A stretch of 64,000 nucleotides of DNA from Escherichia phage KKP 3954. Position 1 is the stretch's first letter, and each line of letters begins with the position of its first letter. Below are positions 1,267-32,584 of this stretch, piece by piece. A program made the position numbers and the translations under genes. Under the pieces are notes generated by a model that did no database searches, had not been told where the DNA came from, and saw nothing but the letters and a program-made list of their open reading frames with translations. Location of the stretch: the sequence record OR067838.1; one strand, given 5' to 3'.

Positions 1267-1650
1267 TTACTGATAAGCCGGATCATTTGTTATATCAATC
1301 CAATGAGATAAATTAATTTTATTTTTTGCTTTCATTTTCTCGATCAAACGTTCGGCTAATGTCTCGGAACGAATATAAACGTTTTCGCTAAAATCTTGCC
1401 CCGTTTCATCGTCGATCATCTCGCGATATTCAATTTTCCCGATAAACGCGTGATTCAGCGCATAAGTTTTACCCGTGTACCAATTATGTAAATGAATCTC
1501 GCATTTATAATCATCGCTATAACCTTCGGTTGTTCTAACTTCAACCAGATCGCCTTTAAACACTGACAAGCACCACATAGGATCACGGTCTACAGCGCCG
1601 TTAAAGTCTTTACCGTTTACAGTCGCTGCCAGGTTGATGATATTGCTCAT
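1267..1650 (-). CDS. Hypothetical early protein
   Basis: ORF track 1267..1725; start moved to ATG at 1650 with AGGAA Shine-Dalgarno (SD); TTGACA-17-TATTAT promoter upstream. Confidence 0.55.
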   Translation of the reverse strand: MSNIINLAATVNGKDFNGAVDRDPMWCLSVFKGDLVEVRTTEGYSDDYKCEIHLHNWYTGKTYALNHAFIGKIEYREMIDDETGQDFSENVYIRSETLAERLIEKMKAKNKINLSHWIDITNDPAYQ

Positions 1651-1696
1651 GGTGATTCCTCGTTTACCGTTTAAAATTGTTTGCCCTACGTGATAA

Positions 1697-1725
1697 ATAA
1701 TAATGTAAGCGTGATCCGGTGTCAA
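1697..1725 (-). promoter_or_regulatory. Sigma70-like early promoter (TTGACA, 17 nt spacer, TATTAT)
   Basis: Consensus -35 and -10 hexamers read on minus strand upstream of gene 1267..1650. Confidence 0.5.
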
Positions 1726-2033
1726 TAGGTAGAATTGTAAAGATTTGATAGTTTATTCCTTTGATGTTTTGTTGTTTGATAGGCATTAGTTATCAATATA
1801 TAGCGGGGTCTTCCGGTGATTATCTTCCCCTGCTTCCAGGTGCCGCCCGTTCAATAAGTATAACAAAAAACAGAACAAAAACAAGTCCTGTTTTTCTTAT
1901 TTTTAAAACCAGTTGCCAACCGTTTCCAATAGGTCACTGACTACCAGGACAACACTGATCAGCACATATTCAACTATGAAGGGGATAAGCGCCAGCGTCG
2001 CTACTATGATCCCCATTGTGATGATTACCTTTC

Positions 2034-2324
2034 TCATTGTTGGCGGCTTACGTAGGCTTTACCGTTTACGGTCATCGGTATGGCCTCAAGGTCTGGATCT
2101 TCCTTAAGGTCGCGTGCAAGCTCACCGCAGCGGATACCCTCGAATCCGTGGTATTCTGTCTCGCCGTCCTTGAAAGTTTTAGCGGCAAGGCATAGGCGAT
2201 AATTAACACCGATCCGGTTTACTGCGTTGATGTCGGTTAGCGTGATAGATTCCGGCAACTCATTAGCCATTGCAGGCGCGTTAATACCAACAACCAGGGC
2301 AACTACTGCGATCATCTTTTTCAT
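2034..2324 (-). CDS. Small secreted or periplasmic protein (N-terminal signal peptide)
   Basis: ORF track; N-terminus MKKMIAVVALVVGINAPAMA is signal-peptide-like; SD present. Confidence 0.6.
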   Translation of the reverse strand: MKKMIAVVALVVGINAPAMANELPESITLTDINAVNRIGVNYRLCLAAKTFKDGETEYHGFEGIRCGELARDLKEDPDLEAIPMTVNGKAYVSRQQ

Positions 2325-2379
2325 GTTGTTTAACCTCTTCCTATTGCGTTTAATGGGGCGTTACCGCCCTGTTTATGGT

Positions 2380-2616
2380 TTATTGATTGATGTTATAATG
2401 AAAATTATTTTCTTCAATAGCTTTTAAAATAAAAGCCGTGATCGCTTTCGTGTCTACTTGTTCGAACGTATCAGAATAGCACCAATAATAATCATCCCCT
2501 ACTTTCGGCGGGTAAACCTGGACAAGGAGATCGCCACCTGGTTGATCTATAAGCTCAACATGCAAGCCGGATGATTCAGCGGTTTTAACGGCGTTTAATA
2601 CTGTTGCAATACTCAT
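2380..2616 (-). CDS. Hypothetical early protein
   Basis: ORF track; ATG start; GC hairpin leader upstream. Confidence 0.55.
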   Translation of the reverse strand: MSIATVLNAVKTAESSGLHVELIDQPGGDLLVQVYPPKVGDDYYWCYSDTFEQVDTKAITAFILKAIEENNFHYNINQ

Positions 2617-2660
2617 AATCTTTCCCTTTCTGATGTGGGGCGTTGCCGCCCCTTTGTTGA

Positions 2661-2960
2661 TTAGATCGCTGTTTCCAGTAGTTCGGCTAACGTCTTACCG
2701 CCTGATAGTTGGTCTAACGTTTGCTCTTCTGGCAAGAAATTAGCTGATATTAAACCGACTTGATTCCCTTTGTGCCAGTTAGCCTGGCGGATGATTCCAT
2801 CCTTTAAGGATTTTACCGCCATTGTGCAACCGTCGCCAAATGATTCATTTTTATGGTCCATCACTTCATAAGCGCCCAGCTTGCTGCTGTTAGGCACCAT
2901 TAACGCGAATACATCACCAACAACCAGTTTTTCTACGGTAACAATAGCGATAGTTTCCAT
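2661..2960 (-). CDS. Hypothetical early protein
   Basis: ORF track; ATG start; promoter and GC hairpin leader at about 2975-3040. Confidence 0.55.
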   Translation of the reverse strand: METIAIVTVEKLVVGDVFALMVPNSSKLGAYEVMDHKNESFGDGCTMAVKSLKDGIIRQANWHKGNQVGLISANFLPEEQTLDQLSGGKTLAELLETAI

Positions 2961-3041
2961 TTTACTTTCCTCATTATCGGCGGCACCATTGCCGCCCTAC
3001 GTGGTAAATATTAGCACACTGGCGATCTGTGTCAATACTTT

Positions 3042-3428
3042 TTATTCAATATAAATCAAATTATCTTCACCAATGTAAGCCGACACGTTCGGCATAAACT
3101 TAGCTGCATTGGTTAGGCGGTTCGCCGTGTTAGTGGTGTATATTTCAGGGCGATCCCAAAAGCCTACGCCGTGACTGTTACGGGTAAAATGTAAATCATT
3201 CCCGATCTGGTTGGCTGTTGCGCCGTCGCTCATTGCCTCAGAGATAGCGGCAAGATTAGCATTAATAAAGGCTGTTACATCCTGGGCGATCCGTTCGTCC
3301 GCGCTAGGAGAAAAATCATAATCGTCTAAGTTATCAATAAAATTACCTTCATGATCCCTTGCTGATTCAGCAAAAATAAAGGCTTCTTTATAACCGTTGA
3401 TGATTTCAATAATGATTTCTGTTTTCAT
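3042..3428 (-). CDS. Hypothetical early protein
   Basis: ORF track 3042..3446; probable ATG at 3428; overlaps upstream gene by about 22 nt. Confidence 0.5.
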   Translation of the reverse strand: MKTEIIIEIINGYKEAFIFAESARDHEGNFIDNLDDYDFSPSADERIAQDVTAFINANLAAISEAMSDGATANQIGNDLHFTRNSHGVGFWDRPEIYTTNTANRLTNAAKFMPNVSAYIGEDNLIYIE

Positions 3429-3642
3429 GCTGTATACGCTCGACAATAATAATAGTTTGCGGGATCTCGTTTTCTACTACTAACAAGGCTTTTTTCTGTG
3501 TGATAGATATTTTAACACGTTGTAAAGTAGCGGTAAAATCTTTCATTTCATTATGCGCGGATTTAGTACAATGCCAGATCTCAGGTTTACCAACTTGCAA
3601 GCCGCGTAAAAATTCCGTTTTACCTGTCTTATTCGTGATCAT
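3406..3642 (-). CDS. Hypothetical early protein
   Basis: ORF track 3406..3651; ATG at 3642. Confidence 0.5.
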   Translation of the reverse strand: MITNKTGKTEFLRGLQVGKPEIWHCTKSAHNEMKDFTATLQRVKISITQKKALLVVENEIPQTIIIVERIQHENRNHY

Positions 3643-3652
3643 TTGTTTCACC

Positions 3653-3757
3653 TTAGCCGATACCGTGGGAAGATAGGATCATGTTAGCCATAGTTGCAAC
3701 CACTCCAACCGATAACGCCAGGCCCACTATTACAACCGTGAAAATTTTCTCTAACAT
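3653..3757 (-). CDS. Hydrophobic micro-protein (34 aa, single predicted TM segment)
   Basis: Not in ORF track (under 60 aa); ATG 3757 behind early promoter and leader; translation MLEKIFTVVIVGLALSVGVVATMANMILSSHGIG. Confidence 0.4.
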   Translation of the reverse strand: MLEKIFTVVIVGLALSVGVVATMANMILSSHGIG

Positions 3758-3838
3758 GATTCTACCCTCATTAATGGGCGTTGCCTTATTGCCCCGCCCT
3801 ACGAAATACATTCTACCCGATTTATAATTGTTGTCAAA

Positions 3839-4108
3839 TTATTTTTTCAAGCTTGACCACTCAAAACACGGGGCGATCTCGTTAAAACTTGTACCCTGTA
3901 AAGCACATAATTTTTTAGCAATAGCCGCCGTAACCTGGCGTTGAACGCGCGGATCTGCTACTGATTGGAGAAAGTAGGCGGTTTTATATGTGATCATGCT
4001 TTCGCCTGTTTCCTTGTTAACATGATGCACTATTTTAGCCTTATCATCTTTTACCAGGATGTAACCGGATTCGATGGCCTTGATTGCAACGTCCAATGAT
4101 ATTTTCAT
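3839..4108 (-). CDS. Hypothetical early protein
   Basis: ORF track; ATG start; hairpin leader upstream. Confidence 0.55.
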   Translation of the reverse strand: MKISLDVAIKAIESGYILVKDDKAKIVHHVNKETGESMITYKTAYFLQSVADPRVQRQVTAAIAKKLCALQGTSFNEIAPCFEWSSLKK

Positions 4109-4154
4109 GATTTACCTCTTTATTGACGGCGGGGATTACTCCCCGCCTCATTAA

Positions 4155-4325
4155 TTACTCTTCATCGTCGCCGTTATAGTATTCAATGCCGTTTTCATCG
4201 GTTACGGTGATATTAACGCCACCGATAGCAACACGATCACGGGCAAACGTCATGGCTTCATTTAAATCTTCAGACCAAAAAATATTGTGACCTTTGCGCG
4301 ATACATAAAACATAGTCGGGATCAT
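4155..4325 (-). CDS. Hypothetical early protein (about 56 aa)
   Basis: ORF track 4155..4409 begins inside the leader hairpin (translated as HIGRRNGP); start moved to ATG 4325. Confidence 0.5.
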   Translation of the reverse strand: MIPTMFYVSRKGHNIFWSEDLNEAMTFARDRVAIGGVNITVTDENGIEYYNGDDEE

Positions 4326-4410
4326 GATTTGTTTCTCTTCTGTTGTGAGCGGTGGACCATTCCGCCGCCCTATGTGGTAAACTTTACTACGTTGTTTGCG
4401 TGCTGTCAAA

Positions 4411-4695
4411 TTATTTTTTAATGTTTTGCCCTACAAAATTAATCATTTCCTTAAGCTGTCTCTCTGTCATGATCGTACCTGGTAATTCCTCTTTAATTTC
4501 TTGCGGTAAATAGATATTACCGTGCCAGGTTAACAAACAACCGTTTTGATCTTCGCAGATAGAATAAGAAAACATCCACTCGCAATCATTTTCAAGCTCC
4601 CAAAAACACAAAAAGTCTTCTTTCCCTAAGTTTTCAACGGTTAAGCATAATCCGCGACGTGCTGCATAATTAGTTAGGCTTTTTGTGATCTTCAT
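4411..4695 (-). CDS. Hypothetical early protein (Cys-rich)
   Basis: ORF track; ATG start; promoter and hairpin leader at 4700-4770. Confidence 0.55.
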   Translation of the reverse strand: MKITKSLTNYAARRGLCLTVENLGKEDFLCFWELENDCEWMFSYSICEDQNGCLLTWHGNIYLPQEIKEELPGTIMTERQLKEMINFVGQNIKK

Positions 4696-4755
4696 GATTT
4701 TTCTCTCTTCTTGTGAGCGGCATCATTGCCGCCCTACGAGATACACTTTACCAGA

Positions 4756-4884
4756 TTAAGCGGACTTGTCAAACTGTTTTTTCTTTTTCTTTGCTTCTAA
4801 CCGTCTAAGGTTACGGCTTGACTTATTGCGCAAGGCGCTTAGATCGTCGTACCCTTTCCATGCTTGCATATCTTTCGGATTCAT
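4756..4884 (-). CDS. Small basic protein (42 aa)
   Basis: Not in ORF track; SD AAGGGGA then ATG 4884; lysine-rich C-terminus. Confidence 0.4.
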   Translation of the reverse strand: MNPKDMQAWKGYDDLSALRNKSSRNLRRLEAKKKKKQFDKSA

Positions 4885-4893
4885 GTTATCCCC

Positions 4894-5055
4894 TTACTTG
4901 TTAGCCGGATTATATGCCAGGACCGCGCCGCTTGCTTTCACGCTTTCCGCTTCATAATTGCGCAAGTCTTCTTCTGTAAGATTGAGCGCGATCACTTCCT
5001 CGATCTCAACGTCAGCGGCAAGGGCGATCTCTTTGATAATGTCTGTTGTTTTCAT
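4894..5055 (-). CDS. Small acidic protein (53 aa)
   Basis: Not in ORF track; SD AAGGTG then ATG 5055; stop lies in the SD of the next gene. Confidence 0.4.
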   Translation of the reverse strand: MKTTDIIKEIALAADVEIEEVIALNLTEEDLRNYEAESVKASGAVLAYNPANK

Positions 5056-5065
5056 GGTATGCACC

Positions 5066-5185
5066 TTATAAGATGATTAATAAGATAGTGACAACGAAAG
5101 CGATTATACTGATGGCAAATGTCATCTTTTTACCTTCGGATACTGCCGGATTTTGTACCGTGTATTCTACTGTGTATTTGCTCAT
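5066..5185 (-). CDS. Hydrophobic micro-protein (39 aa, C-terminal TM segment)
   Basis: Not in ORF track; SD GAGAGGA then ATG 5185; behind promoter and leader at about 5200-5280. Confidence 0.4.
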   Translation of the reverse strand: MSKYTVEYTVQNPAVSEGKKMTFAISIIAFVVTILLIIL

Positions 5186-5283
5186 CGTGTAATCCTCTCG
5201 TTTGCTTTGGGAACTATTCCCGCCGCCCTATGAATTAAATATACACTATCTCAAAATGATTGCAAGCCTTTTTCTAAATTATT

Positions 5284-5568
5284 TTATGCAGTAAACAAAC
5301 CATCATTTACAACGGCGGCGATGATCTCCCGTGCCATTGATTCAGGGAAAGGGGCGCTATAGTCCTGGCTTGTCTCGTTGGTATCAGTGATCCAATGATA
5401 AGCTAACGAGTAAACGCCTTTACTAATTGTTTTCAGTGAGATGATGATCACTCGATTAAGCTTATTGGTGAATGTTGCCGTTAATGTGTTACCCTCCTGC
5501 GTCATGTTAGACAAGTAAGCGGCATCATTAACCAGGGAAAACATTAGCACGGTGTTAGCTTTACTCAT
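5284..5568 (-). CDS. Hypothetical early protein
   Basis: ORF track 5284..5628; start moved to ATG 5568 after leader hairpin; SD GAGGA. Confidence 0.55.
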   Translation of the reverse strand: MSKANTVLMFSLVNDAAYLSNMTQEGNTLTATFTNKLNRVIIISLKTISKGVYSLAYHWITDTNETSQDYSAPFPESMAREIIAAVVNDGLFTA

Positions 5569-5695
5569 GATTTCATCCTCAAAGGGGGCGCGGCACCATT
5601 GCCGCCCTACACGATAACTATAACACAATATAAAGCAGGATCAACTTTTATTTTTCCACGGTGTTAGTTTGTTAATCATTGGTGATAAATAACGT

Positions 5696-5854
5696 TTACC
5701 AACGTAAAACAAGTACGCCAACTGATGCAACGGCGGCGATCTCATGTAAGGAGGAAGGTCGCGCGGTGTCATAGTAGGTACCGATAATAGCAATAGCGGC
5801 AACGGCGGCAATATCGGTAATGATTTTTTCTTGTTTTGTTGTGATAGTGGTCAT
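5696..5854 (-). CDS. Hydrophobic small protein (52 aa)
   Basis: Not in ORF track; ATG 5854 behind promoter and leader at about 5870-5930. Confidence 0.4.
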   Translation of the reverse strand: MTTITTKQEKIITDIAAVAAIAIIGTYYDTARPSSLHEIAAVASVGVLVLRW

Positions 5855-5939
5855 AATGTTTTTCTCTTTTATGTGGTCGGGAACTATTCCCGCCCTATGC
5901 GATACATCTTATCAGACCTGGTTATGGTGTCAACCATTT

Positions 5940-6125
5940 TTAAAGATATTTTATATTAATAACGTTTTCAGGTTTAACCTTGTTGTGATGTGCATCAACA
6001 TAGATCAGACCATCGTCAGAAAAGCCCAGGATCACGCCCTGCGCAATAAAACCGTATTCGTCACGGTAACGCACGGCTATTTTTAATGTTGCGTTGTAGG
6101 CTGTTTTAAGCTCGTTTAAAGTCAT
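5940..6125 (-). CDS. Hypothetical early protein
   Basis: ORF track; ATG 6125 with SD AGGGGAT. Confidence 0.55.
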   Translation of the reverse strand: MTLNELKTAYNATLKIAVRYRDEYGFIAQGVILGFSDDGLIYVDAHHNKVKPENVINIKYL

Positions 6126-6180
6126 CTGTGTTTATCCCCTGCATGTAAAAAGAAAGGGCGCTTGATGCGCCCTTGTTATG

Positions 6181-6327
6181 TTAATCCTCTAAATCCATCC
6201 AATTATATTTGTCACTCTTCCCGCGCTTTGTTTTATTACGCTTATCGCCTTTGCGGATCACTTCCTCGTTCCAGGCCTTGCGGATCTTGGAAGATTGAAT
6301 TTTTTCTGCGCGATTAGATGTATTCAT
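6181..6327 (-). CDS. Small basic protein (48 aa)
   Basis: Not in ORF track; SD GAGGAAACA then ATG 6327; behind promoter and leader at 6340-6400. Confidence 0.4.
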   Translation of the reverse strand: MNTSNRAEKIQSSKIRKAWNEEVIRKGDKRNKTKRGKSDKYNWMDLED

Positions 6328-6406
6328 TTTGTTTCCTCTTCATATGAGCGGCACCATTGCCGCTATATTGTTAATTTAAACTGTTTTGTAAAATTGTCAA
6401 GGTTTA

Positions 6407-6760
6407 TCATTCATAAGAGCAAGCAAGGATCACGCCTGCAATATAAAGCCAATAATTTTCCCTTTCTCGTTGGATTTTATCATCGCTGCTATTCTCTTTA
6501 ATGTATCCCCAGGATGTTAACAAGCGATCAATTTCCCAATATTCGAAAGCGATATTGATATCTGATGGCAAACCTTGTAACCATGATGCAAGTGCTTTAA
6601 CAATACTATAATTAAAACGTGATTGGTTATCAGGGTACCAATACTCGGAATTAAAACGGCGCATCAATTCCGCGATCTTCTCTTTTTCGGTTGTAATACC
6701 GTAATCATTAAAATCGATAGCGGCAAGGATGTACTCTTTAATTGCATTTTGTGCTTTCAT
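6407..6760 (-). CDS. Hypothetical early protein
   Basis: ORF track; ATG 6760; promoter and leader at 6775-6835. Confidence 0.55.
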   Translation of the reverse strand: MKAQNAIKEYILAAIDFNDYGITTEKEKIAELMRRFNSEYWYPDNQSRFNYSIVKALASWLQGLPSDINIAFEYWEIDRLLTSWGYIKENSSDDKIQRERENYWLYIAGVILACSYE

Positions 6761-6850
6761 GGTCTTTCTCTCTTTTTGAGCGGGAACTATTCCCGCCCTA
6801 CGTGTAACAGTTTACTAAAAATTAAATCCGTGTCAAGCCTTATTTTGTTA

Positions 6851-7063
6851 CTACCATTTGGTATACCCTGTCTCAATGTTAGTAAACACTGTTATCCCGT
6901 CCTGGCGTTCACTCATTAACATACAAGGCGCTAACATCCTTTCTACTGCCTTGCACTCATTATAAGCGGCGGTGATGTCTCCTGCTGCCTTGTCTTCTGT
7001 GGTGAATGTATCGTTTACGTAAACCTGACCAGCAACAACGGCGACAATAGCAAAAGTAATCAT
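6851..7063 (-). CDS. Hypothetical early protein (hydrophobic N-terminus)
   Basis: ORF track; ATG 7063; promoter with -10 inside the hairpin loop at 7085-7135. Confidence 0.55.
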   Translation of the reverse strand: MITFAIVAVVAGQVYVNDTFTTEDKAAGDITAAYNECKAVERMLAPCMLMSERQDGITVFTNIETGYTKW

Positions 7064-7137
7064 GATGTTTCCTTGTTAATAGTGGTTTCTCTTCTCTATA
7101 GCGCCCATTATAAGGCGCTATAACGAAAAGTCAACGA

Positions 7138-7305
7138 TTATTTTTTAAGGCTTAAAGTACCTAACTTGTCAGCATGACGCAGACCAGGGAAGATCCATTT
7201 GCCTGATTCATCTTTTACCGGGGCTTTAAACGTTGCGCCCAGGTTGGCGGCGTTAACTTTACGTGCAACGTTGCGAGCGGCTTCACGGGTAGCGAAAGTG
7301 ATCAT
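7138..7305 (-). CDS. Hypothetical early protein (about 55 aa)
   Basis: ORF track 7138..7389; start moved to ATG 7305 with SD GAGGAAACA. Confidence 0.5.
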   Translation of the reverse strand: MITFATREAARNVARKVNAANLGATFKAPVKDESGKWIFPGLRHADKLGTLSLKK

Positions 7306-7395
7306 GATGTTTCCTCTTCTCTTTGTTAGGCGGTGGGCTATTCCACCGCCTTGATGAATACAGTTTACTTTATTTTTGCAGTATTGCAAGCGGTT

Positions 7396-7611
7396 TTATG
7401 AAATAAATGTCAAAGTAAAATCATAATCTTTTGACAGTTTATATTGCACCTTGTTACCGTATATGTCACCTTTACGTAAAGATCCACGGATACCGATAAC
7501 ATCCTTCACGTCTTTTAAATTTTTCACGCCTGTAATGTCTTTGTTGAAATACTCGTCATCTGAAAATAAAACTTGCTTTGCATTTTTTAACAAGGTGCGG
7601 ATATTAGCCAT
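7396..7611 (-). CDS. Hypothetical early protein
   Basis: ORF track; ATG 7611; hairpin leader at about 7630-7660. Confidence 0.55.
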   Translation of the reverse strand: MANIRTLLKNAKQVLFSDDEYFNKDITGVKNLKDVKDVIGIRGSLRKGDIYGNKVQYKLSKDYDFTLTFIS

Positions 7612-7701
7612 CGTGATAATCTCTCTTCTGTTGTGAGCGGCACCATTGCCGCCCTATGTAATATATTCTACTCTTTTTCTTTCCGGTGTCAACAATCTTT
7701 T

Positions 7702-7929
7702 TCAGATTAATTCGTCCAGGCATAACAAGCGATCAACGTTGAGATCGGTTAGGCTAATCGTCGGCACCTGGTAGGATTCGATATACTCAACGCTTGCATA
7801 TTCCCCAAAATTAGCAACAGCCCAGTTATTCAAGATTTCACATACATCATTAATCTTTTTGTTTGTTACAACTGCTACAACCTGGGAATAGCCAACGGTG
7901 CCGGATACGCGAACAATATTGATAGCCAT
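7702..7929 (-). CDS. Hypothetical early protein
   Basis: ORF track; ATG 7929; hairpin leader at 7953-7972. Confidence 0.55.
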   Translation of the reverse strand: MAINIVRVSGTVGYSQVVAVVTNKKINDVCEILNNWAVANFGEYASVEYIESYQVPTISLTDLNVDRLLCLDELI

Positions 7930-7983
7930 AATCTTTAATCTCTCTGTTGTGAGCGGGAAACCATTTCCCGCCCTATGCGATAC

Positions 7984-8011
7984 ATCTTACACTAATTTTA
8001 AACGTTGTCAA
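7984..8011 (-). promoter_or_regulatory. Early promoter of the conserved family (TTGACA, 16 nt spacer, TAAGAT), followed by GC stem-loop leader at 7953-7972
   Basis: Hexamers read on minus strand; same architecture in more than 20 copies. Confidence 0.55.
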
Positions 8012-8020
8012 CTGTTTTTA

Positions 8021-8260
8021 TTACATTCCAACCATCGCGGCACGGATCGCAGTAGTGCTATATTTGAAACCGTCTGGAGTTTTATCTTGTCCAGTTTGTT
8101 CCAGAAAAAGCATCATATCCCGCGCCGCATCATTACGATTAGCATTAGCGTTAATAAAATCCAAGGCCAACCGATACAATGATTCATCGTTATTAATCCA
8201 AAGGCTTACATTCCAATGAGTTTTGTTTTTGTGACCGTTGTAAGTTTTAGTAATAGCCAT
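8021..8260 (-). CDS. Hypothetical early protein
   Basis: ORF track; ATG start; promoter and leader upstream. Confidence 0.55.
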   Translation of the reverse strand: MAITKTYNGHKNKTHWNVSLWINNDESLYRLALDFINANANRNDAARDMMLFLEQTGQDKTPDGFKYSTTAIRAAMVGM

Positions 8261-8349
8261 GATGATAATCTCTCTTTGAATGAGGCGGGAACTATTCCCG
8301 CTCTCTATGTAATACAGTTTACTCTTTTTATTCGTGCTGTCAATGCTTT

Positions 8350-8715
8350 TTATAAATCTTTTTTACGTTTTACATCGCTTGCATGACTGTATACAGTGAT
8401 CCCATTATCACGGCAAAAACGGGAAAGATACGCGCCACGTGAAAACTCTTTACCTTCCATATTAATAACCTTGCTAAATTCTTCCAGGGCGACGGTATCA
8501 AAATGATCACCATAGCCATATTGAAACGGAACGTTAACCACCTCGATCAATTTACCGCCGATCTCAACGTCAACCATTAAAGAAAAATATGTGTTACCGT
8601 AGGACTGTTGAAACCAGCGACGGGCGCTAATATGCACCGCCTCAATGCTGGATAATTCAATTTTAGCCGTGTTAGCCAGGGTAGCATAAGAGGAAACATT
8701 AATATTACTAGCCAT
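8350..8715 (-). CDS. Hypothetical early protein
   Basis: ORF track 8350..8733; ATG 8715 preferred (SD AAGGT); the 8733 ATG abuts the hairpin without an SD. Confidence 0.5.
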   Translation of the reverse strand: MASNINVSSYATLANTAKIELSSIEAVHISARRWFQQSYGNTYFSLMVDVEIGGKLIEVVNVPFQYGYGDHFDTVALEEFSKVINMEGKEFSRGAYLSRFCRDNGITVYSHASDVKRKKDL

Positions 8716-8803
8716 GATGATAACCTTTTTCATTGTTGGCGGGAAACCACTTCCCGCCCTATGTGGTAAACTATACCAGAAGTTTAAACAGTGTCAACCG
8801 TTT

Positions 8804-9166
8804 TTATTCGTAAATTTTACCGCTTTCGGCCCATACCATAACGCGGCGCATACTATCCCAAGTGTTTTGATCCAGGTTTAAGCCGTGCAACTCTTCGGTA
8901 CTTCCCAGACCAGGTACCGCCTTGTTGTAAGTTGCATATAAGCGCCCTTGATACTCATATGCCAGGGTGAGATCCGTTTGAATCATCTTTTTAAGCATAG
9001 CATTAAGCATCATATTAGCGGCATGTTGATCACGTTTTAGCGGTAACATATCAATAAGGGCGCGATAAGCTGAAACATGAATATCAACCGTTTCACGTGG
9101 TAAATTTTTCATATCATCGCGGAAAGATACCAGATTAAACATGATAGTATTGATTTGCTTGCTCAT
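8804..9166 (-). CDS. Hypothetical early protein
   Basis: ORF track; ATG start; leader hairpin at 9188-9209. Confidence 0.55.
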   Translation of the reverse strand: MSKQINTIMFNLVSFRDDMKNLPRETVDIHVSAYRALIDMLPLKRDQHAANMMLNAMLKKMIQTDLTLAYEYQGRLYATYNKAVPGLGSTEELHGLNLDQNTWDSMRRVMVWAESGKIYE

Positions 9167-9220
9167 TGTGTTACCCTTTTTTGTTTTGGCGGGGAAGTAT
9201 TCCGCCGCCCTATGTGATAC

Positions 9221-9248
9221 ATCTTATCAGATTAAAAAACGTTGTCAA
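9221..9248 (-). promoter_or_regulatory. Early promoter of the conserved family (TTGACA, 16 nt spacer, TAAGAT)
   Basis: Hexamers on minus strand, followed by stem-loop 9188-9209 and SD+ATG of gene 8804..9166. Confidence 0.55.
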
Positions 9249-9256
9249 GAATATTT

Positions 9257-9352
9257 TTAGAAAATAATAACCGCTACTACAATCCAAAATGGAACGGCTA
9301 GAATGATACCGTTAATCGTTCCAACCGTCAAGCTATTTTCTTTATTAATCAT
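9257..9352 (-). CDS. Hydrophobic micro-protein (31 aa)
   Basis: Not in ORF track; SD AAGAGG then ATG 9352; translation MINKENSLTVGTINGIILAVPFWIVVAVIIF. Confidence 0.35.
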   Translation of the reverse strand: MINKENSLTVGTINGIILAVPFWIVVAVIIF

Positions 9353-9434
9353 TGTAAGCCTCTTGTATAATTTCACTATGAGCGGCACCATTGCCGCCCT
9401 ACGTGGTAAATATTATGCTAGTGGCGGCGATATG

Positions 9435-10254
9435 TCAAAGACTATTTTCAAAGTTTTCTAGGGCGATCCTTTTTTCTTCCTCTGTCGGCTGATAATCAGG
9501 AAAAGCATCAACACACAACAACGGCGGGATCTCTTCATACTCTTCCTCTTCCGTTGTCTCCTCGTCTTCCTCCTGGGCTATGGCTGCAATTTTGGCTAAT
9601 TTTCTCTCCGCTTGAATCAGTTTACCATCAAATACGTTTTTTGCCATGTTGTAAGCGGTCCAGGTGATGCGCTTACTTTCTAGTGCTTCATCAAGCGCCG
9701 CTATCTTGCTGGGGTATTCATCCAGGACACGAAAAGCCGGATCAACTTTGTATACAAGGGATTATCTTTCGCACCGTCGCTCGCATCTTCCGCACTGGAT
9801 AAATCAGCGTTACCATTTGCCAGCCAACCAGGGCGCACATAACGCGCTTTTACGTTGCCGTTACTACGTGCTAATCTGTTACCTATTTGCTCCCCGCTAT
9901 AGCCCGTGGATTCATCGACAAGATAATCAGGAATGATGCGCGGATCATCTGCTTCATGTTTTACCCAAGACTGGATCACATATTCGCGGCCCATATTAAC
10001 CACCTTTTTTTCAACAATCGGCATACTTTAAAAAGACTTGCTGAATCCTTGCAAGGGTAGAAAGATGTACGATAGTCACGTACGCCAACCTTGCGGATCT
10101 CGATGTTCTCGCATGTTGTTTGATCAAAAATATTTATTTCATCACGCCCCCTTATATAAACATAATGGGGATGTATTAACGCATACTTTGCTAATCTGTA
10201 AAAAGCGTTATCCTTGAACGCGATCACGTGACCTTTTAATTTGATGTAAAACAT
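9435..10254 (-). CDS. Hypothetical early protein with acidic C-terminal domain; one gene split into three track ORFs (9976..10254, 9701..10024, 9435..9647) by two apparent 1-nt deletions (T7 run 10005-10011; GTATAC 9750-9755)
   Basis: Only the first ORF has promoter, leader and SD (ATG 10254); the internal ATGs lack an SD; reading continues without stops after a -1 shift at each junction; C-terminus is Glu/Asp-rich. Confidence 0.5.
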
Positions 10255-10330
10255 TCTACCACCTTACAAATAGCGGGAACTATTCCCGCTTTATGTAACA
10301 TATTAACAAATTATTCGTTAATGTCAAGCC

Positions 10331-10603
10331 TTAAAGCAAAAACGCTACATCTTGCGCTTTTAGTGTAGTATCAACCATTTTTGGGCTTTTATAATCAACA
10401 AAACGCGCGGTTTTTTCAATAGCAAAACCGAGATAATCTTGTTTATTGAATTTACATTCTTTCTTAAATGTTTCCCGCGCCACGGTGATCGCTGCGTCCA
10501 GGGATAAACGCCCGTCAATGTTGATATTTGCGAAAGATCCGCCACCGCTCATAGGTTTACCAGTGGTGCCAGCTACGATCATTGTTGCGCTATATGATGC
10601 CAT
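10331..10603 (-). CDS. Hypothetical early protein
   Basis: ORF track 10331..10663 starts inside the leader hairpin; start moved to ATG 10603. Confidence 0.5.
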   Translation of the reverse strand: MASYSATMIVAGTTGKPMSGGGSFANINIDGRLSLDAAITVARETFKKECKFNKQDYLGFAIEKTARFVDYKSPKMVDTTLKAQDVAFLL

Positions 10604-10626
10604 GATTATAATCTCTCTTCTGTTGT

Positions 10627-10650
10627 GAGCGGCTGGACCATTCCGCCGCC
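10627..10650 (-). other. Conserved GC stem-loop in the 5-prime leader of early transcripts (example copy; family consensus GGCGGCAATGGTGCCGC with compensatory variants)
   Basis: More than 20 copies between promoter -10 and SD; stem changes are compensatory (e.g. CGGGAACTATTCCCG, CGGGAAACCATTTCCCG). Confidence 0.6.
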
Positions 10651-10661
10651 CTATGTGATAC

Positions 10662-10689
10662 ATCTTATCAGGTTGTTGGTTGTTGTCAA
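10662..10689 (-). promoter_or_regulatory. Early promoter of the conserved family (TTGACA, 16 nt spacer, TAAGAT)
   Basis: Hexamers on minus strand upstream of leader hairpin 10627-10650. Confidence 0.55.
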
Positions 10690-10695
10690 TACTTT

Positions 10696-10893
10696 TTATT
10701 CTATTCCTGCAATCTGATTAACGCGTTTGCATTTTGTAGCGTGCTGGTCTTCTGTAATTACTCCCATTTCTAACAGTGAATCAATGAAAGATAAAACCGT
10801 TTCATGATCATCCTGGGGATGACTGAACTCAGTAAAACCGTTTACTACCACGTTTATTTGTCCAGCTTTCGCCACAATGTGCAATGTTGCCAT
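10696..10893 (-). CDS. Hypothetical early protein (about 65 aa)
   Basis: ORF track 10696..10983; start moved to ATG 10893 after the leader hairpin; SD GGAG. Confidence 0.5.
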   Translation of the reverse strand: MATLHIVAKAGQINVVVNGFTEFSHPQDDHETVLSFIDSLLEMGVITEDQHATKCKRVNQIAGIE

Positions 10894-11080
10894 GATCTTA
10901 ACTCCAAATAGTGAGCGGCACCATTGCCGCGCTACGTGGTAAATATTATGCCGCCACCTGGCGAACGTCAACCACTTTTTCAATCTTTTTTATTTTCTTT
11001 TTGCTTGCTATATATAAAGGAAAGGGCTATCATCTTTCTACCGCGCCAACCAGGGCGCACAACAAAGAAAGGGCGACACC

Positions 11081-11347
11081 ATGACAACTACTACATTACA
11101 CCTTATGCACTCATTGGGCTGGCAAGGCGGCACGGTGCACCAGGTAGCAAGCGCAACAGGCTTAAAGGTTGAAACCGTTCTCAACCTGGGCGATCATAAA
11201 GTGGAAGAGATAGAACATTTTGATCCGTTCGCTGATGGTTATTTATGGGCTTGCAGTGGCGGCGGGGAAAGCAAGATCCCGCCAGCGGCGCGGGGCGATA
11301 TGCATTTTTGGTTAGGTGTCCTTTCCTGGCAAGAAAACAAAAAATAA
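11081..11347 (+). CDS. Hypothetical protein in a GC-rich island (atypical composition, possible moron)
   Basis: ORF track; only plus-strand gene in the first 18 kb; local GC clearly above the genome background. Confidence 0.45.
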   Translation: MTTTTLHLMHSLGWQGGTVHQVASATGLKVETVLNLGDHKVEEIEHFDPFADGYLWACSGGGESKIPPAARGDMHFWLGVLSWQENKK

Positions 11348-11349
11348 TC

Positions 11350-11378
11350 TTGACAAGCCCAGGGATCGGGCTTATACT
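11350..11378 (+). promoter_or_regulatory. Near-consensus sigma70 promoter (TTGACA, 17 nt spacer, TATACT) followed by a GC-rich structured segment of about 110 nt
   Basis: Hexamers seen directly; same GGG(A)CTTATACT -10 context recurs at 46759-46787. Confidence 0.5.
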
Positions 11379-11719
11379 GTTTTACATACAGAAGAGGAAG
11401 CGCCACCCCACGGCGTAAAGGCGGGGCTAACATACCAGGGCGCTGGTTGGAAGGTTGATCGCCGGTAGGCTGGGCGCTATATATTTGTAAAGAAATGTAA
11501 AGATAAAATAATCGCTTGCTTTCCTGGCTGGATCTGTTATTCTTATTACATGGCGAGGGGATACGGGAACGCGAGACAAACACCGCCCCTGCGCGTCATT
11601 CTCTAAATGAGAATGATTATCATTTACCTTATTGAATAAGAATCAATCTCATTTATAAACTTAAATGCGAATCATTATCATTTGCATTTCCATATGAGAA
11701 CTCTTCTCATTCTCACCTG

Positions 11720-32506: not shown

Positions 32507-32534
32507 TTGACATAGTTCTTAAAAAGAGTAAGAT
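32507..32534 (+). promoter_or_regulatory. Early-family promoter (TTGACA, 16 nt spacer, TAAGAT) with GC stem-loop leader (32546-32564) upstream of the TerC gene
   Basis: Same promoter-leader architecture as the left-end early genes, here on the plus strand. Confidence 0.5.
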
Positions 32535-32584
32535 ATATCACATGAAGCGGGGAATAGTTCCCCGCAAAGAGAAAGGAGAAAATA

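Follow-up and report, generated by a model that had tools for sequence, protein, structure and literature searches.

Repeated promoter-hairpin cassettes of a phAPEC8-like Escherichia phage are a structure-conserved variant of PeSL cassettes

Introduction

What is the function of a GC-rich hairpin that recurs between the promoter and the start codon of small phage genes? This question is raised by the window analysed here, a stretch of 64,000 nucleotides from Escherichia phage KKP 3954 (OR067838.1), which is a phAPEC8-like Phapecoctavirus sequence with ~95% identity to known phages. The hairpin module is already marked in GenBank records of relatives, as a "PHIRE promoter" ("putative promoter determined with PHIRE") in phAPEC8 and as a "terminator" in ASO2A. 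No paper analysing the hairpin was found in the literature, and none of its copies matched an Rfam family. A preliminary description of the window had interpreted the hairpin as a leader element selected for its structure. Here, the repeated promoter-hairpin cassettes are confirmed, and that interpretation as a whole is partly supported.

Architecture and number of the cassettes

The units share one layout, in which the preceding gene ends with its stop codon inside an A-rich UP-like tract, which is followed by TTGACA, 16-17 nt, TAnnnT, ~10 nt (..CAYRTAG), the GC hairpin, a ~20 nt A-rich unpaired leader, the Shine-Dalgarno sequence (SD) and ATG. This cassette measures ~90 bp and occurs in ~20 repeats. 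The repeated module reported in the preliminary description is thus real, but instead of more than 20 complete copies there are 20, namely 19 on the minus strand (2979-10971) and one on the plus strand (32507-32565, 5′ of terC), with two further promoters being incomplete or variant (1725 and 7134). Similarly, the statement that almost every small minus-strand gene is preceded by the module was too broad, as 21 of the 32 minus-strand genes have their own promoter. The near-consensus sigma-70 promoters were corroborated: TTGACA-N15-19-TANNNT matched 37 times in the window versus 6.0 ± 2.4 times in shuffled sequences, with 18 of the 37, at 16 distinct TTGACA sites, being on the minus strand from 3008 to 10689. 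On the minus strand between 1650 and 11000, 20 of the 29 promoter-like sites have a structure of ≤ -10 kcal/mol 3′ of them, compared with 5 of 120 in the rest of the window.

A covariance model (CM) built from representative hairpin copies was used to scan the 64 kb at E ≤ 1. It returned 18 minus-strand copies (2974 to 10936), the plus-strand copy (32541-32569) and one antisense match of a palindromic copy, with no further matches at this threshold; the irregular copy c3837 was missed. The consensus hairpin GGCGGCAATGGTGCCGC and the variants quoted earlier, which had been spelled as on the plus strand, are present in the array, while the supposedly conserved ACAACAGAAGAG tract was found in only ~5 copies (10689, 8011, 7692, 4772 and 4409). 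The gene 3′ of the plus-strand copy does encode TerC (Pfam E=3e-40). Among nine putative early proteins tested against Pfam, eight had no match and the ninth matched only DUF7249.

Individual copies

On the minus strand, the outermost module c10971 (10908..10971) combines TTGACG-17-TAATAT with the hairpin core CGCGGCAATGGTGCCG (MFE helix 10935-10908). In c10689 (10627..10689; TTGACA-16-TAAGAT), the hairpin GGGCGGCGGAATGGTCCAGCCGCTC (10651-10627) is followed by the ACAACAGAAGAGAG tract, which also follows the hairpin GGGCGGCAATGGTGCCGCTC (7654-7635) of c7692 (7635..7692; TTGACA-16-TAGAAT). The same hairpin GGGCGGCAATGGTGCCGCTC (9399-9380) is carried by c9438 (9380..9438; TTGACA-17-TAATAT). Between these, c10327 (10272..10327; TTGACA-16-TAATAT) contains AGCGGGAATAGTTCCCGCT (10290-10272), c9248 (9188..9248; TTGACA-16-TAAGAT) contains GGCGGCGGAATACTTCCCCGCC (9209-9188), c8797 (8738..8797; TTGACA-16-TATAGT) contains GGCGGGAAGTGGTTTCCCGCC (8758-8738), and c8011 (7951..8011; TTGACA-16-TAAGAT) contains GGGCGGGAAATGGTTTCCCGCTC (7973-7951). 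Module c8343 (8282..8343; TTGACA-16-TAAACT), with the hairpin GAGAGCGGGAATAGTTCCCGCCTC (8305-8282), is shared together with its DUF7249 gene (8021-8260) with jumbo Asteriusvirus phages.

Further along the array, hairpin AGGCGGTGGAATAGCCCACCGCCT (7351-7328) belongs to c7389 (7328..7389; TTGCAA-16-TAAACT), GGGCGGGAATAGTTCCCGCTC (6798-6778) to c6836 (6778..6836; TTGACA-16-TAAACT), AGCGGCAATGGTGCCGCT (6364-6347) to c6400 (6347..6400; TTGACA-16-TAAATT) and GGGCGGCAATGGTGCCGCGCC (5607-5587) to c5644 (5587..5644; TTGATC-16-TATAGT). One G x A mismatch interrupts GGCGGGAATAGTTCCCGACC (5894-5875) in c5933 (5875..5933; TTGACA-16-TAAGAT), and one C x A mismatch interrupts GGGCGGCGGAATGGTCCACCGCTC (4370-4347) in c4409 (4347..4409; TTGACA-17-TAAAGT). 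The hairpin of c5265 (5204..5265; TTGCAA-16-TATATT) is degenerate, with GGGAATAGTTCCC alone being paired (-7.8 kcal/mol). In c4772 (4713..4772; TTGACA-16-TAAAGT), pairing within GTAGGGCGGCAATGATGCCGCTCAC (4737-4713) extends up to the predicted +1. The last two complete minus-strand modules are c3837 (3776..3837; TTGACA-16-TAGAAT), with the irregular hairpin GGGCGGGGCAATAAGGCAACGCCC (3799-3776), and c3035 (2979..3035; TTGACA-16-TAATAT), with GGCGGCAATGGTGCCGCC (2996-2979). The plus-strand module (32507..32565; TTGACA-16-TAAGAT), present where the preliminary description had placed it, carries GCGGGGAATAGTTCCCCGC (32547-32565) at 19 nt from the terC start codon (32585).

In the minus-strand variant c7134 (7086..7134; TTGACT-16-TATAAT), an inverted repeat, TATAGCGCC / GGCGCTATA, encloses the -10. 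The half module c1725 (1683..1725, minus strand) consists of TTGACA-17-TATTAT and TTATCACGTAGGGC; this promoter carries CACGTAGGGC without a hairpin, and homology to relatives breaks within it. Promoterless intercistronic GC hairpins also occur on the minus strand of the array, 7-13 nt 3′ of stop codons and at the same distance to start codons as the promoter-linked hairpins. These are GGCGGGGAGTAATCCCCGCC (4129..4148), which has a GNRA-type loop, lies 19 nt from the next ATG and is annotated as a terminator in its ASO2A counterpart, as well as GGGGCGGCAACGCCCC (2637..2652) and GGGCGGTAACGCCC (2358..2371). Within the array there is a single canonical intrinsic terminator, AAGGGCGCATCAAGCGCCCTT followed by TCTTTTT (6154..6174, minus strand), which provides a reference for the appearance of a terminator in this phage.

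Geometry and covariation of the hairpin

As described before, the hairpin is located 3′ of the promoter, and its register is fixed. From the -10 to the start of the stem there are 7-11 nt (mean 9.7, sd 1.2), and from its end to the ATG 14-27 nt (mean 19.9, sd 2.9); relative to the predicted start, the hairpin spans +1/+4 to ~+25. A survey of pair positions covered 83 distinct modules, which were drawn from 12 sources. C (64) and then a purine (~73/83, paired G's included) occupy positions 7/8 after the -10, and positions 11-18 are paired in >85% of the modules, with 3-4 canonical pair types each. In the predicted transcripts, only the 5′ hairpin is folded, leaving the SD and AUG unpaired. A U-run is absent after every promoter-linked hairpin, and none of these hairpins is terminator-like in sense-direction scoring, in agreement with the preliminary description.

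Covariation of the arms, an analysis proposed in that description, was assessed by permutation. When 3′ halves were swapped among 49 distinct hairpins, the mean energy went from -12.9 to -9.2 ± 0.3 kcal/mol, and the native energy was reached by 0 of 2000 permutations. Joint changes in the two arms are seen between paralogs as well as between phage genera, which indicates that conservation extends to the structure and is not limited to the sequence. To this extent the claim of selection on structure holds; selection at the RNA level, as opposed to a DNA palindrome, is not proven, since sense and antisense folds do not differ significantly in stability (p=0.33; 16 vs 9 G.U pairs). Pair counting with the CM gave ambiguous results, as the register can slip along the G/C runs. 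The arms are asymmetric in purine/pyrimidine content, with 251 G-C versus 54 C-G and 92 A-T versus 2 T-A pairs.

In the orthologous comparison, divergence per site was 0.034-0.043 in the stems, 0.078 in the loop, 0.052 in the coding sequence and 0.10 in the spacer plus initial transcribed region. At orthologous sites, whole hairpin types have been exchanged while a stable hairpin (-9.6 to -15.7 kcal/mol) was kept, except in a single variant (-3.4 kcal/mol), which belongs to c5265, itself degenerate. A search of other phage genomes, likewise proposed earlier, revealed the module in at least three further genera, Justusliebigvirus, Vequintavirus and the jumbo Asteriusvirus. The register there is identical and the stems are different, as in phi92, FV3 and jumbo phage UB (e.g., GGGGAGAA/TTCTCCCC).

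Comparison with known systems

The closest known kind are the promoter-early stem-loop (PeSL) cassettes of the T4-like phages RB49/phi1, PST/T4 and nt-1/KVP40 (Arbiol et al. 2010, PMC2839356; Comeau et al. 2014, PMC4122927). In both, an AT-rich tract that includes the stop codon of the upstream gene is followed by a near-consensus sigma-70 promoter, then by a stem-loop of the G-run...C-run kind and finally by SD and ATG; both exist in dozens of copies 5′ of small ORFans, in an early region that is hyperplastic, and are situated at indel and gene-replacement junctions between close relatives. In contrast to the PeSL hosts, which are Straboviridae, the hosts here are Stephanstirmvirinae, and also Vequintavirinae and Asteriusvirus. 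Furthermore, the stem-loop of RB49 is found 5′ of the promoter or inside it (in the -35/-10 spacer or overlapping the -10) and that of PST/nt-1 just 5′ of the promoter, whereas 20 of the 21 hairpin-bearing copies here are fixed 3′ of the -10, inside their own predicted 5′ leader. The remaining variant, c7134, in which the stem-loop surrounds the -10, has the classical RB49-type geometry.

Like intrinsic (rho-independent) terminators, the hairpins are intergenic and have 7-10 bp in a GC-rich stem and 3-6 nt in the loop, but they are positioned 3′ of a promoter and just 5′ of a ribosome binding site (RBS), and their tails are A/C-rich. The 5′-terminal stabiliser stem-loops of ompA, papA and the T7 gene 10 leader (Emory/Bouvet/Belasco 1992, cited in PMC3997798) likewise combine a stable hairpin a few nt from the 5′ end (here predicted) with a leader free of structure and a strong RBS. 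They have no sequence similarity to the present hairpins, which in addition are repeated ~20 times within a mobile promoter cassette.

Possible functions of the hairpin

Among the functions considered for the hairpin, stabilisation of the mRNA from its 5′ end is the likeliest. Transcription by the host RNA polymerase is predicted to initiate at a conserved Y-R step situated 7-8 nt 3′ of the -10, which would place the stem-loop 0-3 nt from the 5′ end. Since this start is a prediction, we infer rather than observe that the hairpin is a leader element. In such a position, the unpaired 5′ nucleotides would be too few to be used by RppH or by the 5′ sensor of RNase E, both of which require single-stranded 5′ termini, so that 5′ secondary structure stabilises transcripts (review, PMC3997798). 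Internal orthogonal stem-loops are easily passed by scanning RNase E (PMC9943677); it is therefore the terminal position that would matter. As the stem-loop would also border directly on the ribosome footprint at its 5′ edge, these presumably early, small mRNAs would have their short leader sealed against 5′-end-dependent decay. The hairpin-to-ATG distance is constrained as well, which speaks against a stabiliser, and because promoterless hairpins keep the same distance, a role at the RBS edge or between cistrons fits equally well.

It is possible, although on balance unlikely, that the hairpin insulates each cassette by attenuating read-through from the one upstream, as proposed for PeSLs. 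RNA polymerase would pause or terminate there, or a 3′ exonuclease would be blocked, giving upstream mRNAs a protective stem, and each cassette would be expressed mainly from its own promoter. PeSL stem-loops acted as strong terminators in a lacZ assay, and an RB49 G-run/C-run stem-loop without a classical U-run cut reporter expression to the same extent as rrnB T1 (PMC2839356), so the missing U-run does not exclude attenuation. The hairpin occupies every intergenic gap of the head-to-tail gene array, where promoterless GC hairpins also follow stop codons closely, and the ASO2A annotators labelled it a terminator. However, an efficient terminator 3′ of its own promoter would abort its own transcripts too, a terminator role suits the RB49 stem-loops within or upstream of the promoter better than hairpins fixed after the -10, and the U-run seen in the one true terminator of the array is found in 0 copies.

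A specific protein recognition site appears improbable. On RNA, a phage or host factor could time the shut-off of early mRNAs or protect or cleave them as a regulon; on DNA, a recombination protein, as speculated by the PeSL authors, or a repressor could bind the palindrome at +4 to +25. The recurrence of AAU(G/A)G loops and the ACAUAG leader on different stems and in different genera would suit such a site, and the equal sense and antisense stability is compatible with a DNA palindrome. Against this, the stems are diverse and so are the loops (TAG, TGG, ATGG, GTGGT, CAC, CTA, AAC and ACAAG), the loop diverges faster than the stem, the nine Pfam-tested proteins include no candidate binder, and the purine/pyrimidine asymmetry of the arms is unexpected for a symmetric dimer site.

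We consider it very improbable that the hairpin is functionless and the module spreads merely by homologous recombination and gene conversion. Breakpoints at modules, different hairpin types at orthologous sites and cassettes common to several genera, jumbo phages included, would all follow. However, simple homology does not require complementarity, and the arms change jointly, keeping -10 to -19 kcal/mol (-7.8 in c5265) in stems of little identity that are more conserved than the adjoining spacer and leader.

A phage-specific promoter, as in the phAPEC8 record, is hardly credible. In its favour, the 20-mer GTAGGGCGGCAATGGTGCCG is over-represented, and PHIRE detects nothing beyond this. Against it, the hairpin varies in sequence while its pairing persists, always ~10 nt 3′ of a near-consensus sigma-70 promoter and ~20 nt 5′ of the ATG, and this group is not known to have a phage RNA polymerase.

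Cassettes at points of gene exchange

The repeated cassettes coincide with points of gene swapping between phages. In comparison with nine relatives, intergenic regions that bear a module contain 27 of 41 synteny-breakpoint clusters while accounting for 21.5% of the sequence (p ~1e-9), although breakpoints are not enriched there relative to module-free intergenic regions (p=0.80). In phage SKA64, an extra inserted gene has the c3035 module on both flanks. Being repeated ~20 times and common to related phages, the ~90-bp cassette would sit at gene-cassette exchange sites and may take part in an exchange that resembles the modular shuffling of PeSLs. Combined, these cassettes are a structure-conserved variant of the published PeSL cassettes and not a new kind of element. 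We see an even chance that each unit is an autonomous early-gene cassette, located at exchange points, whose hairpin would act as a 5′-terminal mRNA stabiliser.

Early promoter and hairpin modules in the small-gene array

The early sigma-70 promoter and the GC hairpin downstream of it form a regulatory cassette that is genuine and well conserved and shows structural covariation. These modules belong to an array of 32 small genes arranged head to tail on the minus strand (~1267–10893). Of nine early proteins tested against Pfam, eight gave no match, and the ninth matched DUF7249 only. Between 4000 and 9000, the sequence shows 95% identity to Escherichia phages anhysbys, ukendt, AV125 and ESCO13, and this region is also related to phAPEC8 (genus Phapecoctavirus, Stephanstirmvirinae).

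The pattern TTGACA-N15–19-TANNNT matched 37 times in the window compared with 6.0 ± 2.4 times in shuffled sequences. On the minus strand between 1650 and 11000, a structure of −10 kcal/mol or lower followed 20 of 29 promoter-like sites, against 5 of 120 sites elsewhere, which confirms the repeated module proposed in the preliminary description. Every copy has TTGACA (or TTGCAA, TTGACG, TTGATC), a spacer of 16–17 nt and TAnnnT, and upstream of the −35 element lies an A-rich tract in which the preceding gene has its stop codon, e.g., gaaTAAaaagtaTTGACA and TAAtaaaaacagTTGACA.

Instead of the more than 20 copies first proposed, 19 complete modules were counted on the minus strand, with −35 elements at 10971, 10689, 10327, 9438, 9248, 8797, 8343, 8011, 7692, 7389, 6836, 6400, 5933, 5644, 5265, 4772, 4409, 3837 and 3035, and one on the plus strand at 32507. 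The latter is situated 19 nt ahead of a gene assigned as TerC by Pfam, in agreement with its earlier placement before terC. The statement that almost every gene is preceded by the module had to be narrowed, as just 21 of the 32 genes possess their own promoter, and the supposedly conserved ACAACAGAAGAG tract is present in only about five copies. A covariance model (CM) built from representative copies recovered 18 of the 19 minus-strand modules and the plus-strand module, while a scan of the entire 64 kb gave no further match except the antisense of one palindromic copy.

Two minus-strand sites deviate from this layout. The half module at 1683–1725 contains a consensus promoter and the conserved CACGTAGGGC without the hairpin. 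Homology with phi92-like phages breaks within it, and this sequence pattern suggests a recombination junction inside a module. At 7086–7134, the inverted repeat TATAGCGCC/GGCGCTATA encloses the −10 element, and a 51-nt stretch here is 96% identical in Klebsiella phage 05F01.

Downstream of the array, positions 1–1250 form an ORF-poor stretch of ~1.25 kb that is 89–97% conserved in relatives and has no annotated CDS there; a search of this stretch for tRNAs, Rfam matches and notable repeats found none. The homologous array in phi92 points toward the right terminal repeat.

Position of the hairpin in the predicted leader

Among the 19 minus-strand copies, the stem starts 7–11 nt after the −10 element (mean 9.7, sd 1.2), and in the plus-strand copy it begins 12 nt after it. 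The stem ends 14–27 nt before the ATG (mean 19.9, sd 2.9), and the hairpin energies range from −7.8 to −18.7 kcal/mol, with a 5′ arm rich in G and a 3′ arm rich in C (251 G-C versus 54 C-G pairs). The ~10 nt following the −10 element carry a conserved ..A-C-(A/G)-T-A, in which the C-purine step occupies positions 7/8 after the −10. Transcription in E. coli usually begins at a pyrimidine-purine step 7/8 nt after the −10. With the start predicted at these positions and the stem running from position 8–12, the transcripts would therefore possess only 0–3 (at most 4) unpaired 5′ nucleotides. The G and U of the CGTAG copies form pairs with the conserved ..CAC that follows the stem; if the predicted start is correct, the 5′ end itself would then be paired. 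The hairpin has a fixed position, terminal relative to the predicted start; it is the sole fold of the predicted transcripts, leaving the SD and AUG open.

A sense-strand terminator scan found no U-run after the promoter-linked hairpins, as previously described, and an intrinsic terminator is ruled out on this basis. The same scan did recover the array's one true terminator, at 6174–6154. This sole canonical intrinsic terminator of the early array lies between genes 6181–6327 and 5940–6125 and, owing to its palindromic character, scores on both strands.

Three GC hairpins on the minus strand have no promoter (4129–4148, 2637–2652 and 2358–2371, with the GNRA-type tetraloops GTAA, GCAA and GTAA, respectively). 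They are located 7–13 nt past a stop codon and precede the following ATG by 19–31 nt. In the plus-strand (antisense) direction, 2637–2652 and 2358–2371 score as terminators with T-rich tails.

In the commonest hairpin, GGCAAUGGUGCC (9380–9399 and the other class-A copies), the loop contains an AUG. In the copy at 9438, this AUG is in frame with the downstream gene, lacks an SD and sits within the stem-loop; judging from this context, it is probably not used.

Conservation of structure and sequence

The MAFFT alignments (A1 and A2) and the CM-fitted alignment (A4) of the copies slip in G/C runs and are structurally inconsistent. Therefore, a table of 83 distinct modules, drawn from 11 loci as well as the window and aligned by promoter register only, and a half-swap permutation test were used instead. 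In the table, over 85% of the modules are paired at positions 11–18 after the −10, with several canonical pair types at each position: C-G 51, G-C 21 and A-T 2 at position 14, and G-C 31, C-G 20, A-T 14 and T-A 2 at position 17. When the 3′ halves were exchanged among 49 distinct hairpins, the mean fold weakened from −12.9 to −9.2 ± 0.3 kcal/mol, and none of 2000 permutations attained the native energy. Both results support the earlier view that pairing is conserved over sequence. The pair count from the register-slipping alignment A4 was above shuffles (0 of 500) but not above a −1 slide control.

Comparison of orthologous modules in nine relatives showed that the stems have the lowest divergence of all parts after the −35 (0.034–0.043 per site), compared with 0.078 for the loop and 0.10 for the spacer and initial transcribed region. 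At orthologous sites, entire hairpin types have been replaced with retention of a stable stem (−9.6 to −15.7 kcal/mol). The only exception, at −3.4 kcal/mol, is a variant of the module at 5265, whose hairpin is already degenerate.

Possible function of the hairpin

By analogy with known 5′ structures, the hairpin may act as a 5′-terminal mRNA stabiliser, a reading to which we give an even chance. Both RppH and RNase E require 5′ ends that are single-stranded, and mRNA is stabilised by secondary structure at its 5′ end (PMC3997798), while internal orthogonal stem-loops are readily scanned past by RNase E (PMC9943677). Since RNase E passes internal stem-loops, it is the terminal position that would protect, and a hairpin at the predicted 5′ end would guard the transcript against both enzymes. 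By analogy with ompA, the hairpin would end where a bound 30S subunit begins, so that hairpin and ribosome together could cover the whole leader.

A smaller share of plausibility falls to an insulator or attenuator, including a barrier to 3′-exonucleases: in phage RB49, a stem-loop without a classical U-run lowered lacZ expression as much as rrnB T1 (PMC2839356). However, an efficient terminator 4–25 nt past its own promoter would be self-defeating. Because of this position and the missing U-run, a leader element, as first proposed, is the better reading, with the start being a predicted one and the attenuator kept as a rival.

It is unlikely that the hairpin serves as a recognition site for a protein on RNA or DNA. 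Fold stability, compared between the sense and antisense strands in order to separate RNA from DNA selection, did not differ significantly (p = 0.33), even though the arms show a strong purine/pyrimidine asymmetry. A similarly unlikely reading is that the hairpin is a tag recognised by a factor that the phage encodes, or by a host factor that it has modified, joining some 20–25 early transcripts in one post-transcriptional regulon; the tag would have spread among three large-coliphage lineages with their cassettes. Recurrent features of the hairpins are the AAU(G/A)G loop and the ACAUAG 5′ end. Such a regulon might serve protection during phage-accelerated host mRNA decay, or timed shut-off.

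A CsrA site is ruled out by loops lacking GGA. Stems of 7–10 bp would be too short for an RNase III site, and lambda-type nut/boxB elements and N4 hairpin promoters would not fit in loop type and position.

Relation to PeSLs and cassette exchange

In T4-like phages, promoter-early stem-loop (PeSL) cassettes lie on either side of ORFans in hyperplastic regions and bring about the shuffling of modules (PMC2839356, PMC4122927). PeSL stem-loops terminate or attenuate transcription, and mini-circles arise by recombination between PeSL copies. The modules share with these cassettes a near-consensus sigma-70 early promoter, an AT-rich tract before the −35 that includes the preceding gene's stop codon, and a stable stem-loop whose 5′ arm is G-rich and whose 3′ arm is C-rich. 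Like PeSLs, they also precede small ORFans in a variable region and occur where relatives differ by an indel or a replacement. They differ in host lineage and in stem-loop placement, which in PeSLs is within or upstream of the promoter, acting on upstream transcripts; the RB49 geometry occurs solely in the copy at 7134. Arbiol et al. described a rarer PeSL subclass with the stem-loop downstream of the −10 (PMC2839356). In our direct check of RB49, the stem-loops overlapped the −10 or lay between it and the −35; the leader position was not seen in any of them. On these sequence features, the module is best filed with the PeSL kind, with the stem-loop shifted into the predicted 5′ leader.

Of 41 clusters of synteny breakpoints relative to nine relatives, 27 fall in module-bearing intergenic regions, which comprise 21.5% of the sequence (p ~1e-9). 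Between genera, gene order changes in single-cassette blocks, and phage SKA64 has an extra gene with a copy of the 3035 module on either side. Breakpoints were not enriched in module-bearing intergenic DNA when compared with intergenic DNA that lacks the module (p = 0.80). Accordingly, what the data show is exchange cassette by cassette, and not the module as its cause. We regard it as quite improbable that the module is kept as recombination homology only.

Distribution and existing annotation

A search of other phage genomes, as earlier suggested, found the same layout in phi92 and other Justusliebigvirus phages, Vequintavirus FV3 and the jumbo Asteriusvirus phage UB, where the stems are GGGGAGAA/TTCTCCCC behind TTGCAA-16-TATAAT. 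BLAST with one module returned 155 phage records, mostly Stephanstirmvirinae and Vequintavirinae. Across 5,426 E. coli genomes it found nothing, which rules out a host-derived element (REP or similar). The cassette at 8016–8360, consisting of a module and the DUF7249 gene, is 82% identical in the jumbo Asteriusvirus phages UB, G17 and JP4. The DUF7249 CDS by itself is ~90% identical in several Vequintavirinae, and the UB version of the hairpin has an inverted centre, GGGAACTATTCCC versus GGGAATAGTTCCC.

The module is already visible in database records, but mislabelled. In the phAPEC8 record (JX561091), the 20-mer GTAGGGCGGCAATGGTGCCG is labelled 'putative promoter determined with PHIRE' and the sigma-70 part 'host dependent promoter', whereas the ASO2A record (MZ726793) contradicts this by labelling the same hairpins 'rho-independent terminator'. 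The PHIRE reading is ruled out by position and variability, and a hairpin acting as a phage-specific promoter is barely credible. Rfam gave no match in the 64 kb window at the gathering score, and a permissive search of 1500–11500 gave chance-level matches at E > 1 only, none on a hairpin. Literature searches found no paper analysing these hairpins or motif sequences and nothing on Phapecoctavirus or Vequintavirinae transcriptomes.

The conflicting 'phage promoter' and 'terminator' labels in GenBank would be corrected by this description. The modules provide strong promoter and 5′-UTR parts that have diversified in nature, and they point to usable junctions for engineering therapeutic phAPEC8-like phages. 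Furthermore, they offer a testable leader design consisting of a predicted 5′-terminal hairpin, ~20 nt of open leader and the RBS. The PeSL idea would widen from T4-like phages to Stephanstirmvirinae, Vequintavirinae and jumbo Asteriusvirus, and, by analogy with known mRNA stabilisers, large lytic coliphages appear to use this hairpin leader design so that many of their short early mRNAs persist.
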